Positions 752 to 6,933 of a stretch of 22,357 nucleotides of DNA are shown here, in pieces. Where the stretch lies: UHGV virus genome UHGV-0078062; one strand, 5' to 3'. The notes beneath the pieces are model-generated. The model was not told the origin of the DNA and did no database searches. It saw only the letters and a list, made by a program, of their open reading frames with translations. Every line of letters starts with the position of its first letter. Position 1 is the stretch's first letter. Source of the DNA: a virus. Both the position numbers and the translations under genes were made by a program.

Positions 752-1215
752 GCAGAGTAACCGCGATTATCTCAGCTCTGGTTATCTGCATCATCGTCTG
801 TCTGTCATGGGCGGTTAATCATTACCGTGATAACGCCATCGCCTACAAAGAGCAGCGCGATAAAAAAGTCAGTGAGCTGAAGCAGGCGACTGCCACCATT
901 ACTGACATGCAGCAGCGCCAGCGTACTGCTGATGCACTCGATGCTAAATACACGAAGGAGTTAGCTGATGCGAAAGCTGAAAATGATGCTCTTCGGCGCA
1001 AGCTTGATAATGGTGGTCGGGTGCTCGTCAAAGGAAAATGCCCTGTGCCATCCTCAGCCGAAACCTCCAGCGCCTCCGGCATGGGCAATGATGCCACCGT
1101 CGAACTCTCTCCAGTTGCTGGACGAAACGTTCTCGGTATCCGGGACGGAATTATCCGCGACCAAACAGCACTGAAAACACTTCAGGAATATATCAGGACG
1201 CAATGCCTTCGATGA
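748..1215 (+). CDS. Rz: Rz-like inner-membrane spanin (i-spanin)
   Basis: ATG 748 overlaps endolysin stop (ATGA); N-terminal TM helix ([20 protein letters not shown]) then charged coiled-coil-like periplasmic region; the ORF-track start at 736 is a GTG upstream of the conserved MSRVTAII start. Confidence 0.8.
968..1174 (+). CDS. Rz1: Rz1-like outer-membrane lipoprotein spanin (o-spanin), embedded in the +1 frame of Rz
   Basis: Lipoprotein signal peptide [19 protein letters not shown] with lipobox, proline-rich mature part ([11 protein letters not shown]); strong SD AAGGAG 9 nt upstream of ATG 968; entirely inside Rz. Confidence 0.8.
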
Positions 1216-1390
1216 TAGCGATAATTTTACTCATCATCCTTCACATCTGGCTCTGTAGACAGGGTGGTGATCACTTCTGGAGTGAATCCAGATTAAACAT
1301 CTCATTGCTGATGCTTGATATTGAGCATCTGGCGCGCGGTAAGGGGCTGCGTTGAGATAAGAGCCAGTCATCACAAACACCAGGATTTAG

Positions 1391-1412
1391 CCTCGCCTTC
1401 GCGGGGTTTTTT
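1391..1412 (+). terminator. Rho-independent terminator-like hairpin after the lysis cassette
   Basis: CCTCGC / loop CTTC / GCGGGG stem (one G-U pair) at 1391-1406 followed by TTTTTT at 1407-1412. Confidence 0.5.
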
Positions 1413-1436
1413 ATTCCCAACTCCATAGGTAATTTT

Positions 1437-1916
1437 ATGACCCAGTATATTGGCGTAAAACTGATTAACGCCTTTCCGATGACGAGACAGGCATATAACG
1501 ATTTTCGTGGCTGGCAGCTTCCTGCCGGAGAAAACGGCGAGGACGAAGGCTATCTGGTTGAATATCTGGATGGCGGAAAACCTAACACCGATCGCTTTGA
1601 TGGCTACGTTAGCTGGAGTCCAAAAGAAGTATTCGAAAAGGCTTATCGTCCGGTATCAGGACTAAGTTTCGGCCTTGCCATGGAAGCGTTAAAACAGGGC
1701 AAAAGTTTGCAGCGGGCAGGATGGAATGGGAAAGACCAGTTTGTTTATCTCGTGAAAGGGGAAAAATTAGCGTCTGCGTTGGGTTATGGCTTTGGCGAAT
1801 ATGTTGGCGAGCCAACTTTCAATGACACGCTTGTATTGAAAAACTCACAGAACCGCCTTGCTACATGGGTTCCATCCATTGGCGACCTGATGGCTGAAGA
1901 CTGGCAAATCATTTAA
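1437..1916 (+). CDS. Hypothetical accessory protein with DUF2829-like (Tad2-like sponge) C-terminal domain and a degenerate N-terminal copy
   Basis: 159-aa ORF; C-terminal half has ALKQGK-x4-R-x-GWNGK...FVYLV...W-x-PS...DLMAEDWQI, a pattern I recall for DUF2829; N-terminal half shows a weaker parallel (RGW...GYLVEY...SWSPKEVFEKAY). Family assignment from memory, not from a search. Confidence 0.65.
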   Translation: MTQYIGVKLINAFPMTRQAYNDFRGWQLPAGENGEDEGYLVEYLDGGKPNTDRFDGYVSWSPKEVFEKAYRPVSGLSFGLAMEALKQGKSLQRAGWNGKDQFVYLVKGEKLASALGYGFGEYVGEPTFNDTLVLKNSQNRLATWVPSIGDLMAEDWQII

Positions 1917-1925
1917 CCATGTAGG

Positions 1926-1961
1926 CATTACAAAGCCTATCTACGGGTGGGCTTGATAATG
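1926..1961 (+). repeat. Copy A of a ~40-nt imperfect intergenic repeat (ATTACAAAGCC...GGGCTTGATAATG) containing a stem-loop and ending in an ATG
   Basis: Shares ATTACAAA-GCC...TAC...GGCTT-GATAATG with copy B at 2534-2573; internal stem AAGCC/GGCTT; terminal ATG (1959) opens a 9-codon mini-ORF (MKPELISGH). Confidence 0.5.
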
Positions 1962-2151
1962 AAACCGGAGTTAATTTCTGGTCACTAATTAACGGCAGTA
2001 CAGCGAAACAACCCAAGCCAGTAAGTGGGGAAATAACACTGGCAGCCACTGAAAGATGAACCTCCTGCCTTATGGCAAAAAAAGATTCTTTGTGGTGGCG
2101 GACTGATGGAAAGACATCCTAATCAAGCAACCACTCCACAGGGTCATAATT

Positions 2152-2532
2152 ATGAACGACCAGCAAATCGAAAAAGAAATCGTTGAGAAAGGCAAAACCG
2201 CTCCGAGAATCACTCCGCAGCACATCGAAGACGTGATTAAAAGCGAGCATTACTTTACTGCTTATGATGGACGTAATGGTGCCATTTCCAGCAACGAATA
2301 TTGTGGCAGGGAAAAACCAGAAGAAGGCGATCGTGATTTATCACCATTGAAGTTGCTCACTTTCTGCGTACTGGTGCTGAAGAATGGCTTCACCGTCACC
2401 GGAGAGAGTGCCTGTGCAAGCCCGGAAAACTTTGATGCAGAAATTGGTCGGAAGATTGCCCGGCAGAATGCTGTAAACAAAATCTGGATGCTCGAAGGTT
2501 ACTTGCTGAAGCAGAAGCTAAGCGAACAGTAG
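2152..2532 (+). CDS. Hypothetical phage accessory protein (possibly N4 gp49 / Sf6 gene 66 family)
   Basis: 126-aa ORF in the lysis-to-terminase slot; motif LTFCVLVLKNGFTVTGESACASPENF...KIW.LEGY resembles what I recall of that family, but the assignment is tentative. Confidence 0.6.
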   Translation: MNDQQIEKEIVEKGKTAPRITPQHIEDVIKSEHYFTAYDGRNGAISSNEYCGREKPEEGDRDLSPLKLLTFCVLVLKNGFTVTGESACASPENFDAEIGRKIARQNAVNKIWMLEGYLLKQKLSEQ

Positions 2533-2533
2533 T

Positions 2534-2573
2534 TATTACAAAAGCCATTCCTTACTGAGTGGCTTTGATAATG
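2534..2573 (+). repeat. Copy B of the ~40-nt imperfect intergenic repeat (TATTACAAAAGCC...TGGCTTTGATAATG)
   Basis: Stem AAAGCCA/TGGCTTT with 12-nt loop, compensatory relative to copy A; terminal ATG (2571) opens a 9-codon mini-ORF (MAYTLHGIT) that runs into the hairpin GGGATA-N10-TATCCC (2589-2610) plus TTTT. Confidence 0.5.
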
Positions 2574-2635
2574 GCTTATACCCTACACGGGATAACTTAA
2601 CTGATATCCCTTTTAACGGATAAACGGAGCCAACA

Positions 2636-2878
2636 ATGGCAGAGATTATTCCCATGACTGAAGAACAGAAATTCCAGTTAGAGATTTACAAACTGGTCAT
2701 GAACCAGAACGCAGCCGCGGAGGAAGCATTTCAATTCATTGGCACTGACGAACTGAAGCTTGAGCTATTCAAAATTCACTTCCAGTCAGGCGGCGCTAAT
2801 TCAGATATCACGACCCGCACTATCGAAGCGGTGCGTAAATCGAAGGAAGCGTTAGACCTGTTCACTACCGGAGCATAA
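2636..2878 (+). CDS. Hypothetical small helical protein, apparently translationally coupled to the terminase small subunit
   Basis: 80-aa ORF, GGAG SD about 10 nt upstream; stop TAA 2876-2878 is 2 nt before the terS ATG at 2881; no recognisable family. Confidence 0.5.
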   Translation: MAEIIPMTEEQKFQLEIYKLVMNQNAAAEEAFQFIGTDELKLELFKIHFQSGGANSDITTRTIEAVRKSKEALDLFTTGA

Positions 2879-2880
2879 AC

Positions 2881-3321
2881 ATGGCACGCCCAACAAAGTA
2901 TCAAGAGGCGTATGCCGAACAGGCACGCAAACTGTGCTTGCTGGGCTACACAGATGCAGAACTTGCTGATTTCTTTGAAGTCAGTGAGTCAACTATTAAC
3001 AAGTGGAAGCTTGATTATCCTAAGTTTTCGGAGTCCATAAAAAAGGGTAAGGCCGTCGCTGATGCAGAAGTTAGTGATCGTCTTTATCAACGAGCTATGG
3101 GCTTCGTGGCTCCAGACATCGATATTCGTGTTATTGAAAACAGAATTGTCGAAACTCCGCTTGAGAAGTATTACCCGCCTGATACAACCGCTGCCATCTT
3201 CTGGCTTAAGAACAGACAGAAGGATAAATGGCGCGACAAGGTTGATCACGAGCTAACAGGCAAAGACGGCGGCGCAATTCAGATTGAAACATCACCGATG
3301 AGCACTCTATTCGGAAAATGA
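2881..3321 (+). CDS. Terminase small subunit (TerS)
   Basis: 146 aa; N-terminal HTH-like DNA-binding region (CLLGYTDAELADFFEVSESTINKWKLDYPKF) typical of small terminases; GGAG SD 7 nt upstream; overlaps the terL start by 4 nt. Confidence 0.8.
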   Translation: MARPTKYQEAYAEQARKLCLLGYTDAELADFFEVSESTINKWKLDYPKFSESIKKGKAVADAEVSDRLYQRAMGFVAPDIDIRVIENRIVETPLEKYYPPDTTAAIFWLKNRQKDKWRDKVDHELTGKDGGAIQIETSPMSTLFGK

Positions 3322-4733
3322 CCTCGATTAATCCTATCTTTGAACCGTTCATTGAGGCGCATCGCTACAAAGTCGCCAAAGGCGGTCGAGGTAGCGGTAA
3401 GTCATGGGCAATTGCGAGGCTGCTTGTTGAAGCGGCGCGTCGTCAGCCAGTGCGTATTCTCTGCGCTCGTGAACTGCAAAACAGTATCAGCGATTCGGTA
3501 ATCCGGTTGCTTGAAGACACTATCGAGCGTGAAGGGTATTCGGCTGAGTTTGAAATTCAGCGTTCAATGATTCGTCATCTCGGAACGAATGCTGAATTCA
3601 TGTTCTACGGCATAAAAAACAACCCGACGAAGATTAAATCGCTCGAAGGCATTGATATCTGCTGGGTGGAAGAAGCGGAAGCGGTAACAAAGGAATCGTG
3701 GGATATCCTGATCCCAACCATCCGTAAGCCGTTCTCTGAAATATGGGTGAGCTTTAACCCGAAGAACATCCTCGACGATACCTATCAGCGATTCGTCGTA
3801 AACCCTCCTGATGATATTTGTCTGCTGACGGTGAACTACACCGACAACCCGCACTTTCCTGAAGTTCTCCGTCTGGAGATGGAAGAGTGTAAACGCAGAA
3901 ATCCGACACTGTATCGTCACATCTGGCTTGGTGAGCCAGTAAGCGCAAGTGATATGGCAATCATCAAACGTGAATGGCTTGAAGCCGCAACCGATGCGCA
4001 CAAGAAACTCGGATGGAAAGCGAAAGGCGCTGTTGTCTCTGCGCATGACCCGTCAGATACAGGACCAGATGCTAAAGGTTATGCATCGCGTCACGGTTCG
4101 GTAGTTAAGCGCATTGCCGAAGGTCTGCTGATGGACATCAACGAGGGTGCTGACTGGGCTACTTCGCTGGCGATTGAAGACGGCGCTGACCACTACCTGT
4201 GGGATGGTGATGGTGTTGGTGCTGGGCTACGCAGACAGACAACGGAAGCGTTCTCCGGCAAGAAAATCACCGCCACGATGTTCAAGGGCAGCGAATCGCC
4301 ATTCGATGAAGATGCGCCGTATCAGGCCGGAGCATGGTCTGATGAAGTCGTACAGGGCGACAATGTTCGCACTATTGGCGATGTATTCCGCAATAAGCGA
4401 GCGCAATTCTATTACGCGCTGGCTGACAGGCTGTATCTGACATATCGGGCGGTTGTCCACGGTGAGTATGCAGACCCCGACGACATGCTGAGCTTCGACA
4501 AAGAAGCGATAGGCGAGAAGATGCTGGAGAAGCTGTTTGCAGAACTGACGCAGATTCAGCGCAAATTCAATAACAACGGGAAGCTGGAGCTTATGACTAA
4601 GGTTGAAATGAAGCAGAAGCTCGGTATTCCATCTCCTAACCTGGCTGATGCGCTGATGATGTGCATGCATTGCCCGGAGTCGGCTGCGCAACCCGACTAT
4701 TCCAGTTACTCAATTCCTTGTGGTGTAGGTTGA
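3318..4733 (+). CDS. Terminase large subunit (TerL), Sf6 gp2-like
   Basis: 471 aa; Walker A-like KGGRGSGKS near the N-terminus, ATPase then nuclease domain layout; size and sequence match the Sf6-type large terminase as recalled. Confidence 0.95.
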   Translation: MTSINPIFEPFIEAHRYKVAKGGRGSGKSWAIARLLVEAARRQPVRILCARELQNSISDSVIRLLEDTIEREGYSAEFEIQRSMIRHLGTNAEFMFYGIKNNPTKIKSLEGIDICWVEEAEAVTKESWDILIPTIRKPFSEIWVSFNPKNILDDTYQRFVVNPPDDICLLTVNYTDNPHFPEVLRLEMEECKRRNPTLYRHIWLGEPVSASDMAIIKREWLEAATDAHKKLGWKAKGAVVSAHDPSDTGPDAKGYASRHGSVVKRIAEGLLMDINEGADWATSLAIEDGADHYLWDGDGVGAGLRRQTTEAFSGKKITATMFKGSESPFDEDAPYQAGAWSDEVVQGDNVRTIGDVFRNKRAQFYYALADRLYLTYRAVVHGEYADPDDMLSFDKEAIGEKMLEKLFAELTQIQRKFNNNGKLELMTKVEMKQKLGIPSPNLADALMMCMHCPESAAQPDYSSYSIPCGVG

Positions 4734-4734
4734 T

Positions 4735-6933
4735 ATGGCAGAAAAAAAGATGAATGACTGGCATCGCAAGGTGCTGTGCAACTTTGATAATGCCTGGTCA
4801 GCAACGCAGGATATGCGTGAGCAGATTATTGAGGCTCAACGTTTCGTCAGGGTATCCGGCGCACAGTGGGAAGGAAGCACAAACGCTGGTTACTCATTTG
4901 ATGAAGGCAGGTTTGAGCATTATCCGCGCTTTGAGCTGAATAAGATTGCCCGTGAATGTGATCGCATCATTGGCGAGTATCGACAGAATCGCATAAGCGT
5001 TAAATTCAGGCCGAAGGACGATAAGGCATCGGAAGCGTTAGCCGAAAAGATGAACGGCAAATTCCGCGCTGACTATCAGGAAACATCCGGTGGCGAAGCG
5101 TGTGATAACGCATTTGATGATGCTGTAACGGGGGGATTCGGTTGTTTCCGCATGTGTGCCGATTACGAAGATGAAATGGACCCAAGTAACGAGCAGCGAC
5201 GCATCAGCCTTCTTCCTGTTTACGACCCGGCGACATGCGTCTTCTTCGATCAGGACAGCAAACAATATGACCGCTCTGATGCTATGTGGGCTATGGAAAT
5301 GTTCTCCATGACGCCTAAAGCGTTCGAGGCTGAATACCCTGATTCCATTGCGGCAAGCCTTTCTCGGGATGACACTGGTACTCAGTATGACTGGTCAACG
5401 CCTGACGCCATCTATGTTGGTCGCTACTATGAAGTCCGCATAGAGAAGGTGAAGCTCACGGCGTGGCGCAACCCTGTTAGCGGAGAAACGGCAATCTATG
5501 ATGAAGAGCAAATCAAAGATATTGTCGACGAGCTAACCGATGGTGCATTCGAACTGATCGGTGAGCGAACGGTGAAGAAACGCCGCGTTTATTGCGGTCT
5601 TCTGTCTGGCGCTGAATGGCTGGAAGAACCGAAGCGCATTCCGGGCGAACATATTCCTCTCATCCCGGTATATGGGCGTCGTTCATTTGTTGATAATCAG
5701 GAGCGAATCGAAGGCCACGCAGCAAAAGCGATGGATGCACAGCGTCTTGAGAACCTGATGGTTTCCATGATTGCAGATAACGCTACTCAGGCTGGCGGTG
5801 ATGGCATTCCTATCGTGGATGTTGATTTCATTCCCGGTCCATTAATGAATCACTGGGCAGAGAGGAATAAGAAAAGACCTGCAGTTCTTCCCATGACCAG
5901 CAAGAAGGACAAAAACGGAACGGTCATTTCAGAGGCTCAGGTTGCTGGCTGGACACCTCCGACACAAATGCCTCCTGCTCTTGCCGGGCTATTGCAGTAC
6001 ACCGGAACGGCTATTCAGCAAATTACAGGTGCGTCGCAGCTTGAGAACATGCCGAGCAACGTCGCCACCGATACCGTTGATAGCATCTTTAACCGGATGG
6101 ATACGCAGTCCTATATCTACATGGACAACATGGCTAAATCCATGCGTCGCGCTGGCGTTGTGTGGCTTTCTATGGCGCGTGAGGTCTATGGCAGTGATAC
6201 GCCGATGCGTATCGTTAATGAGGACGGCAGCGATGACGTGGCGCTGATGACTGGTGAAGTGGTTGACCGTCAGACAGGGCAGGTTATCGCGCTTAATGAC
6301 CTTTCGCAGGGCAACTATGAAGTGACTGTCGATGTCGGTCAGTCGTTCGCTACTCGCCGTGATGCAACGGTTAAGTCGTTACTTTCCATGCTGGCACTTA
6401 TCCCACCAGGAACGCCGAAGCACGACCTTGTATCGTCGATGATTCTCGACAATATGGACGGCGAAGGGATGGACGACCTTAAAGAATACAACCGCAATCA
6501 GTTGCTTCTGTCTGGAGTTATCAAGCCGAGAACACCAGAAGAACAGAAGATGGTTGAGCAGGCGAAACAACAACAGGCCAGTCAGCCAGATCCGGCTATG
6601 GTTGCTGCGCAAGGTCAGCTTCTTGCTGGTCAGGCTGAATTGCAGAAAGCGCAGAACGAACAGGCAGCCATTCAGGTTAAAGCATTCCAGGCACAGACTG
6701 ATGCTCAGGTTGCAGCGGCAAATGTTGTGAAAATACTCGCATCTGCCGATAGTCAGCAGAAATCTGATATCCGCGAGGCTCTGAAACTGCTCGGACAGTT
6801 CCAGCAACAGCAAGGAGACAATGCCCGTGCTGATGCAGAGCTTGTCCTGAAAAGTCAGGCACAGGGTCATGCGCAGCGCATGGACATCAGCAGCATCCTG
6901 CAAAAATCAACTCAGCAACAACCACAGCAGTAA
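4735..6933 (+). CDS. Portal protein (P22 gp1-like) with Gln/Ala-rich C-terminal barrel
   Basis: 732 aa; segments such as GEHIPLIPVYG and PRTPEEQKMVEQAKQQQASQPDPAMVAAQGQLLAGQAELQKAQN align with recalled P22 portal sequence; starts 1 nt after the terL stop. Confidence 0.95.
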   Translation: MAEKKMNDWHRKVLCNFDNAWSATQDMREQIIEAQRFVRVSGAQWEGSTNAGYSFDEGRFEHYPRFELNKIARECDRIIGEYRQNRISVKFRPKDDKASEALAEKMNGKFRADYQETSGGEACDNAFDDAVTGGFGCFRMCADYEDEMDPSNEQRRISLLPVYDPATCVFFDQDSKQYDRSDAMWAMEMFSMTPKAFEAEYPDSIAASLSRDDTGTQYDWSTPDAIYVGRYYEVRIEKVKLTAWRNPVSGETAIYDEEQIKDIVDELTDGAFELIGERTVKKRRVYCGLLSGAEWLEEPKRIPGEHIPLIPVYGRRSFVDNQERIEGHAAKAMDAQRLENLMVSMIADNATQAGGDGIPIVDVDFIPGPLMNHWAERNKKRPAVLPMTSKKDKNGTVISEAQVAGWTPPTQMPPALAGLLQYTGTAIQQITGASQLENMPSNVATDTVDSIFNRMDTQSYIYMDNMAKSMRRAGVVWLSMAREVYGSDTPMRIVNEDGSDDVALMTGEVVDRQTGQVIALNDLSQGNYEVTVDVGQSFATRRDATVKSLLSMLALIPPGTPKHDLVSSMILDNMDGEGMDDLKEYNRNQLLLSGVIKPRTPEEQKMVEQAKQQQASQPDPAMVAAQGQLLAGQAELQKAQNEQAAIQVKAFQAQTDAQVAAANVVKILASADSQQKSDIREALKLLGQFQQQQGDNARADAELVLKSQAQGHAQRMDISSILQKSTQQQPQQ

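Follow-up and report, generated by a model that had tools for sequence, protein, structure and literature searches.

A P22-like phage genome with a predicted Acb4 cyclic-dinucleotide sponge gene and a conserved DUF2560 gene between its lysis cassette and terS

The DNA analysed here, referred to as the window, is a stretch of 22,357 nucleotides of the virus genome UHGV-0078062. Two small genes located immediately upstream of its terminase small subunit gene (terS) were characterized. They are probably unlike in character: an Acb4 sponge gene coding for a 126-residue protein and a DUF2560 accessory gene coding for an 80-residue protein, both located between the lysis cassette and terS. Each belongs to a family already on record, the described Acb4 family for the 126-aa gene and the known P22 Orf80 family for the 80-aa gene.

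Both open reading frames start with an ATG on the + strand, at 2152..2532 (126 aa) and 2636..2878 (80 aa), as an earlier note on this DNA had reported from the sequence alone. The 126-aa protein covers profile positions 1-82 of 82 of PF13876 (Phage_gp49_66; E 3.4e-35, 120.8 bits, cut-off 27) and the 80-aa protein positions 1-72 of 72 of PF10834 (DUF2560; E 1.1e-43, 147.7 bits, cut-off 25). With scores so far over the curated cut-offs they are genuine genes and not chance ORFs. Homologues number more than 8000 for the former and 93 for the latter.

Genomic context of the two genes

The window opens with a lambdoid lysis cassette made of a lysozyme gene (248-751), Rz (736-1215) and an embedded Rz1. 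The accessory region is followed by the packaging and head genes, i.e. terS (2881..3321, + strand; phrog_309, E 9.7e-68), terL (3318-4733) and a P22-type portal gene (4735-6933). Identity of the portal protein reaches 99.5% with that of Escherichia phage phiv205-1, 55% with that of Sf6 and 34.5% with that of P22. Because of these identities and of the gene layout, the window is assigned to a P22-like phage or prophage of the E. coli/Shigella type.

Between the end of Rz (1215) and the first accessory gene lies an intrinsic-terminator-like hairpin with a T-run (1389..1418, + strand), whose 8-pair stem contains 5 G-C pairs and is followed by TTTTATT. A sigma-70 promoter scan found none in the intergenic regions upstream of the 126-aa and 80-aa ORFs, with counts at chance level, and for this reason independent moron transcription of the two genes is not claimed. 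The Rfam scan of positions 1100-3400 at E <= 1 matched no family. The three proteins of the accessory region gave no match in a PADLOC scan and are therefore not considered to be components of a defence system.

The 126-aa protein belongs to the Acb4 family

Acb4 of Bacillus phage SPO1 forms a tetramer that soaks up 3'3'-cGAMP and CBASS signals related to it (PDB 9E4W), and the Acb4 family was equated with PF13876 (Chang et al., bioRxiv 10.1101/2024.12.30.630793). The earlier note had linked the 126-aa protein to the N4 gp49 / Sf6 gene 66 family through a conserved-looking core (LTFCVLVLKNGFTVTGESAC...KIWMLEGY). This core is present in the translation and the link was right. The protein is identical to gp66 of Shigella phage Sf6 (Q716B1), one of the proteins after which PF13876 is named, at 125 of 126 positions, residue 3 being D in the window and G in Sf6, and Escherichia phage Huey encodes it with 100% identity. 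It shares 45% identity over 109 residues with the Acb4 protein of coliphage N4. The description of the family as one of unknown function is outdated, PF13876 being the Acb4 cyclic-dinucleotide sponge family. Chang et al. (bioRxiv 10.1101/2024.12.30.630793) list the Sf6 protein Q716B1 itself, with the same sequence, among the 1,331 Acb4 homologues of their Table S3. Overall, the family occurs in 640 phage records from many genera.

The profile search and the structure prediction that the earlier note had proposed both lead to the SPO1 structure. The 126-aa protein retrieved 9E4W at E 0.007 with phmmer, and hhalign gave 94% for the pair. Its AF2 model (pLDDT 88) contains strands at residues 29-36, 69-76 and 81-87 and a helix at 96-125. 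When this model was compared to the PDB with Foldseek, the chains of 9E4W were the sole significant match (probability 1.00, target-normalised TM-score 0.61-0.70) and the next match was found at E 0.29. The model displays the monomer fold of 9E4W, with three antiparallel beta-strands, N-terminal helices and long C-terminal helices.

The published ligand contacts of SPO1 Acb4 were carried over to the 126-aa protein through sequence alignments, including that of hhalign. The pocket loop between beta3 and alpha4 is kept (ENFxxEIGR; E92-N-F-D-A-E-I-G-R100 in the window and E60-N-F-N-D-E-I-G-R68 in SPO1). The stacking and hydrophobic contacts F48, F62 and I66 of SPO1 are also kept as F80, F94 and I98, and N63, a backbone contact, aligns with D95. 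Among 43 close homologues of the 126-aa protein, N93, F94, D95 and G99 are invariant and E92, E97 and R100 nearly so. Other contacts are replaced: the guanine-specific K36 and E49 of SPO1 by L68 and T81, and the phosphate contacts Y57, T70 and K81 by A89, I102 and M113. Since these five contacts are not conserved, the ligand spectrum of the 126-aa protein could differ from that of SPO1 Acb4. Their loss bears on the specificity of the SPO1 protein and not on Acb4 family membership.

This raises the alternative that the 126-aa protein has the Acb4 fold and serves another signal, such as c-di-AMP-type or cUA-type molecules only or a cyclic trinucleotide, or plays another role. The five replacements are in its favor, as are the 29-residue insertion found between beta1 and beta2 relative to SPO1 Acb4, the 18-residue N-terminal extension relative to the short forms, and the variation of ligand specificity known within the Acb4 family. 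Against it, 3'3'-cGAMP was bound by 8/8 purified Acb4 homologues, c-di-GMP being bound by 0/8 (bioRxiv 10.1101/2024.12.30.630793), and the pocket loop and stacking residues are those of the family. Additionally, others modelled the short-form proteobacterial homologue A0A0B3RSW4, which has the NGFTVTGESACASPENF core in common with the 126-aa protein, as a tetramer (ipTM 0.93) and presented it with the sponges that have positively charged pockets. A change of signal or role is accordingly regarded as unlikely.

The assembly expected of an Acb4 protein is a homotetramer with the ligand pockets at the protomer interfaces. By homology, the 126-aa protein would assemble in this way and would sequester CBASS-type cyclic dinucleotides, most likely 3'3'-cGAMP and c-di-AMP-type signals. 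Those of the purified homologues that come from phages of Gram-negative hosts bound 3'3'-c-di-AMP too (bioRxiv 10.1101/2024.12.30.630793). With the signal soaked up, the CBASS effector would never be activated. Binding of cyclic dinucleotides or inhibition of CBASS was demonstrated for SPO1 Acb4 and the eight homologues, the Pm86 fusion and Ab09 gp59. Acb4 family membership of the 126-aa protein is well supported by sequence comparison and the predicted model, as is, by homology, a sponge mechanism, and its exact ligand set is predicted by analogy with the assayed homologues. The anti-defence role that the earlier note had suggested for the 80-aa protein is, for the 126-aa gene, backed by homology to Acb4 sponges. 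The same activity may have a cost. N4 Acb4 is both required and sufficient for activation of the Panoptes guard system, in agreement with sponge activity, and DAC-based guards (PanDA/Panoptoo) also respond to Acb4. Like other Acb4 proteins, the 126-aa protein should expose the phage to guards of both kinds.

A Tad2 neighbor and a known moron slot

The gene preceding the Acb4 gene (1437..1916, + strand) was identified as a Tad2 (anti-Thoeris sponge) gene by its match to PF11195 and to the SPO1 Tad2 structure. The Tad2 domain occupies residues 75-159 of the encoded protein (PF11195, E 6.3e-22; SPO1 Tad2, PDB 8SME/8WJE, E 3.4e-26 for 8SME). Residues 1-74 form an unnamed N-terminal domain that is encountered elsewhere alone or fused to Tad2 or Sequestin (PF21825). 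In a by-eye comparison, a similar N-terminus was seen ahead of the Acb4 domain in A0A1S8PGY5. The presence of Tad2 beside Acb4 therefore points to a small two-sponge anti-signalling island between the lysis and packaging genes, which would be read from the late operon.

The insertion point of the Acb4 gene could be delimited against empty sites. A conserved non-coding block, read from the sequences as CTGAAAGATGAACCTCC...GGACTGATGGAAAGACATC (2049..2118, + strand), makes up the left edge of the slot. In HK97, P22 and ST64T, this block is directly followed by the boundary hairpin described below and the empty site reads ...GGAAAGACATC-GG-TTATTGCAGAGGCC..., with GACATC GG ahead of TTATTGCAGAGGCC. 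At the same site, the window carries GACATC, the insert and then TTATTACAAAAGCC... The insert is the Acb4 cassette (2119..2533, + strand; ~415 bp), composed of a 33-nt leader and the gene. The slot directly upstream of the DUF2560 gene is the site of the P22 pid moron and is empty or filled with another insert in related phages (Cenens et al. 2013). The Acb4 cassette would thus have been dropped into a known moron slot. Upstream of an identical DUF2560 gene, Acb4 was found in 15/65 loci and Tad2 in 4/65. The earlier note had located both genes at a site of variable cargo in P22-like phages. The label of cargo suits the 126-aa gene, given its sporadic occurrence at a published moron site, and not the 80-aa gene, the one that stays constant in this region.

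Hairpins at the boundaries of accessory genes

Two copies of a hairpin of the form ATTACA-stem-loop-stem-GATAATG bound the accessory genes. Copy 1 (1927..1961, + strand; fold z-score -4.0) is located 11 nt past the Tad2 stop codon and copy 2 (2535..2573, + strand; fold z-score -5.4) 3 nt past the Acb4 stop codon. Across 80 related loci, the late-operon strand carries 124 occurrences of the flank pattern, and a hairpin of 8 bp or more is present in 123 of these; the opposite strand carries 35 occurrences, all of them lacking a hairpin. When the inner segments were shuffled, a hairpin appeared in 0.7% of the trials. Pairing reaches 97% in 27 hairpin variants and 8 of the 14 pairs change on both sides, i.e. 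covary, in this set of related loci picked with the hairpin filter. For half of the hairpins, an accessory ORF (Acb4, Rha, Tad2 and others) has its stop codon no more than 20 nt from their start. Covarying, strand-specific hairpins are thus located at the 3' ends of accessory genes in the slot. They contain no U-run and match no Rfam family. Candidate roles are a weak terminator, an RNase III site or 3' stabiliser, or a recombination joint. If functional, the boundary hairpins would account for cargo exchange at the hotspot.

A bolder proposal makes the accessory region a hairpin-punctuated cassette array, in which the hairpin is a dedicated signal for the swapping of anti-defence cassettes and DUF2560 with its leader is the fixed anchor. 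Every gene inserted there (Tad2, Acb4, Rha and a number of small ORFs) would end in an ATTACA-stem-GATAATG hairpin acting either as a recombination joint, comparable to the attC site of integrons, or in the processing or stabilisation of RNA. Anti-defence cassettes would pass between lambdoid phages of Enterobacterales through this hairpin, and DUF2560 itself could be a new counter-defence protein. The proposal as a whole appears improbable.

The DUF2560 gene is a constant element under purifying selection

The 80-aa gene encodes an acidic protein (pI 4.7) predicted to form four helices. Its identity is 98.8% with Orf80 of Salmonella phage P22 and 100% with the proteins of HK620 (HkbM), Sf101 and epsilon34; the gene 67 region of Sf6 shares 97.4% nucleotide identity with the window. 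The family is small: clustering at 90% identity leaves 93 groups, and clustering at 50% leaves 75, in a set of 1.84 billion representative proteins. All its named and phage matches come from Enterobacterales. Across 37 diverse members, the length of ~80 aa and the four-helix pattern are kept down to ~27% identity, and the conserved positions are hydrophobic or alanine, so that no polar motif stands out. The median pI of the family is 4.8. The position of DUF2560 genes is invariably between the lysis cassette and the terminase genes, and Klebsiella and Proteus phages conform to this, the distant members being placed from annotated phage records.

The 80-aa gene is under strong purifying selection. 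In a set of 81 loci selected for identity of the 80-aa protein, this protein is encoded by 73 distinct nucleotide versions in which 35 of the 40 variable sites are third codon positions. The leader of the gene (2574..2635, + strand) is conserved too. It comprises a second, small hairpin (GGGATA...TATCCC followed by TTTT, ~2589-2614) and the Shine-Dalgarno sequence GGAG at 2626-2629, is nearly invariant in 78 loci and is also found in HK97.

The search for relatives of known function was uninformative. Neither the PDB sequences, searched with the 80-aa protein and with the 37-member family profile, gave anything under E 0.1, nor did the structure searches return an informative relative, the Foldseek matches in BFVD being uncharacterised proteins that are probably family members. 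Literature searches on DUF2560, PF10834, hkbM and Orf80 yielded nothing functional beyond a P22 deletion. A Sequestin-like sponge (PF21825) was also considered, the 80-aa protein being small, helical and located beside sponge genes. This candidate was rejected: no Pfam match to PF21825 was obtained at E <= 1, and hhalign of the DUF2560 profile against a PF21825-Acb4 fusion gave a probability of 0.5%. The acidity of the family is a weak argument against it, some known sponge pockets being not strongly basic.

Possible roles of the DUF2560 gene

The earlier note had proposed that the 80-aa protein is translationally coupled to terS and is possibly a packaging accessory factor working with it. 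The gap of 2 nt on which this rests is real. At the junction (2870..2883, + strand), the TAA stop codon of DUF2560 (2876-2878) is followed by the ATG of terS (2881-2883), and the terS Shine-Dalgarno sequence GGAG (2870-2873) lies inside the 3' end of the 80-aa ORF. The constant position of DUF2560 homologues ahead of the terminase genes would fit such a factor, as would their presence in most enterobacterial P22-like phages (178 phage records for roughly 150 with a P22-type portal, a rough comparison). Nevertheless, coupling to terS holds as physical adjacency in the window and no further. The +2 junction is found in 25/81 loci with an identical 80-aa protein; elsewhere, Orf59c, orf129, orf134, a 162-aa ORF or an HNH gene separates DUF2560 from terS. 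The identical protein precedes at least three types of terS (P22-type, Sf6-type and that of the window), without co-variation, and in Klebsiella phages DUF2560 is located upstream of packaging modules with HNH and P27-family terS genes. The variable junction and the diversity of terS types make a dedicated packaging role unlikely. In addition, a P22 delta(orf25-orf80)::Km mutant remains able to form plaques and to lysogenise (Hsu and colleagues, PMC11016777). Mapping of its primers onto P22 yields a 904-bp deletion in which codons 1-74 of orf80 are gone. Taken with the varied terS partners, this viable deletion argues against an essential or terS-specific role in packaging, although the mutant was scored for plaques and lysogeny on one host and a quantitative defect in packaging or burst is still compatible with it. 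HK97-like phages (HK97, HK022 and relatives) keep only the leader and the first 28 codons of DUF2560, directly upstream of gp74. Finally, DNA binding is unlikely for so acidic a protein, and homology to packaging proteins, which the earlier note had named as what would overturn its reading of the ORFs, was looked for and found neither in Pfam nor in PHROG or PDB. A packaging partnership with terS is consequently considered improbable, and the 2-nt junction would result from tight spacing of genes in the late operon, perhaps accompanied by incidental translational coupling, and would not mark a functional pair.

The truncated HK97-type version also bears on a different explanation, according to which the DUF2560 segment is kept mainly as DNA or RNA, the protein being secondary. 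The leader, the hairpins and the 5' end of the gene would then join the accessory region to the head module as a recombination linker or serve there as an RNA-processing site. What HK97, HK022 and their relatives retain is the 100-nt leader with the first 28 codons (93-96% aa identity), the 100 nt upstream of DUF2560 are almost invariant in 78 loci, and the hairpins covary. The coding sequence tells otherwise: its 80-codon length and helical pattern persist down to ~27% identity in the 37 diverse members, and variation among the 73 nucleotide versions falls almost entirely on third codon positions. Both are marks of selection on the DUF2560 protein, and preservation of the segment mainly for its DNA or RNA is very unlikely. 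The DUF2560 protein most plausibly acts through protein-protein binding, in a conditionally useful, host-directed role. More specifically, it might be an accessory protein, expressed late, whose partner is a protein of the Enterobacterales host or of its immunity, a tentative suggestion that could well prove wrong. Against it, so widespread and so strictly conserved a gene would be atypical of counter-defence cargo.

Significance

In RefSeq and GenBank, these genes are still labelled 'Gp49 family protein', 'DUF2829 domain-containing protein' or even 'anti-CRISPR protein'. Under the Acb4 and Tad2 reading, common P22-like prophages of E. coli, Shigella and Salmonella would carry a two-sponge island in their late operon. 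Such an island would bear on phage host range, on the choice of therapy phages and on which prophages should trigger Panoptes or PanDA. DUF2560 is a near-universal and strongly selected late gene of the best-studied podovirus family, dispensable under laboratory conditions. The role of this gene, the unnamed domain at the N-terminus of the Tad2 protein and the hairpins at the cassette ends are the points of residual interest.

Comparison with known systems

The closest counterpart of the arrangement is found in Sf6, where gp66 occupies the same position as the 126-aa gene and is followed by gene 67 (DUF2560). The terS located downstream in Sf6 is unrelated to that of the window. P22 Orf80, HK620 HkbM and Sf6 gp67 all have the same place in the late operon as the 80-aa gene. 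In P22, however, orf59c is interposed between orf80 and gene 3, and the element upstream of orf80 is the pid moron instead of Acb4. The pid moron shares its insertion slot with the Acb4 cassette of the window but is transcribed in the opposite direction from its own promoter, has a Rho-independent terminator and targets the expression of dgo in the host instead of immune signalling.

Among the Acb4 proteins, that of N4 (N4 gp48/gp49) comes from a phage of the same host group as the 126-aa protein. N4 is a virulent phage whose Acb4 gene resides in another hotspot, and its protein is devoid of the first 18 residues of the 126-aa protein and has a C-terminal tail. SPO1 Acb4 has its Pfam family and fold in common with the 126-aa protein at an identity of ~24-29%, the latter differing by a longer N-terminus and the beta1-beta2 insertion. 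SPO1 Acb4 was shown to be a tetramer and a 3'3'-cGAMP sponge, whereas the 126-aa protein is likened to it from sequence and a monomer model. The pairing with Tad2 also has precedents, fusions of Tad2 and Acb4 being frequent in other phages. The Acb4-Tad2 fusion of Pasteurella phage Pm86 and the Acb4-Sequestin fusion of Pseudomonas phage Ab09 (gp59) combine sponge domains against CBASS and Thoeris, and the Pm86 protein blocks type I Thoeris and type I CBASS. Close homologues of the 126-aa protein are likewise fused to Tad2 (P0193) or to PF21825 Sequestin (P0200). In contrast with these fusions, Tad2 and Acb4 are encoded in the window by separate adjacent genes, 235 nt apart, each with its own 3' hairpin.

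Hairpins between the lysis cassette and terS

Two hairpins with the pattern ATTACA-stem-loop-stem-GATAATG lie on the plus strand of the window, at 1927-1961 and 2535-2573, each at the 3' end of an accessory gene. Hairpins of the same family were found in related locus L004 (at 2428 and 2739) and in HK97 (about 1400-1440 of its locus), and 123 copies were counted in loci L006-L085. They form a covarying and strand-specific family that marks the 3' ends of accessory genes located between the lysis cassette and terS. Inserted cassettes adjoin the 5' base of the hairpin. The hairpins lack a U-run and correspond to no Rfam family. In the stretch from Rz to the Tad2 gene, within the late operon, there is a separate strong hairpin with a T-run (1389-1418, plus strand) that resembles an intrinsic terminator. 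Some of the related loci, such as L033, L038 and L062, have similar terminators immediately 5' of their boundary hairpin.

The sponge genes and their annotation

The labels that the Tad2 and Acb4 genes carry in public records are outdated or misleading. In Escherichia phage Huey both genes (1538-2038 and 2273-2653 of its locus, respectively) are referred to as 'anti-CRISPR protein', and in the RefSeq entries of E. coli genomes Tad2 is entered as 'DUF2829 domain-containing protein' and Acb4 as 'Gp49 family protein'. The N-terminal domain of the 159-aa Tad2 protein (residues 1-74, window 1437-1658) gave no match in Pfam or the PDB. Elsewhere it makes up a whole protein of about 75 aa by itself, or is found in fusions with Tad2 or Sequestin (PF21825), and a Clostridium protein among the Acb4 homologues has, as judged by eye, a similar N-terminus ahead of its Acb4 domain. 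By the same fusion logic that led to the discovery of Sequestin, residues 1-74 are a candidate further anti-signalling domain.

DUF2560 and its flanking sequences

In two related loci (L019 and L064) a 162-aa ORF (MTTIAWDGKTLASDTQASSGD...) lies between DUF2560 and terS, directly downstream of DUF2560 (+1), and the junction itself is therefore an insertion site. The conserved non-coding block at 2049-2118 of the window is common to P22, ST64T and HK97, and its A-run has one more A in the window than in P22 and HK97. In ST64T the block is in frame with the DUF2560 homologue and is read together with it as 'Orf-118'; in many metagenome gene calls it yields 'long' DUF2560 proteins of 105-129 aa. 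The HK97-like siphoviruses have retained the conserved leader but only the first 28 codons of DUF2560 (1503-1586 in the HK97 locus; also in HK022, HK544, HK75, mEpX1 and mEpX2), with the HNH gene gp74 directly 3' of this remnant, an arrangement that represents a mosaic joint within the DUF2560 gene.
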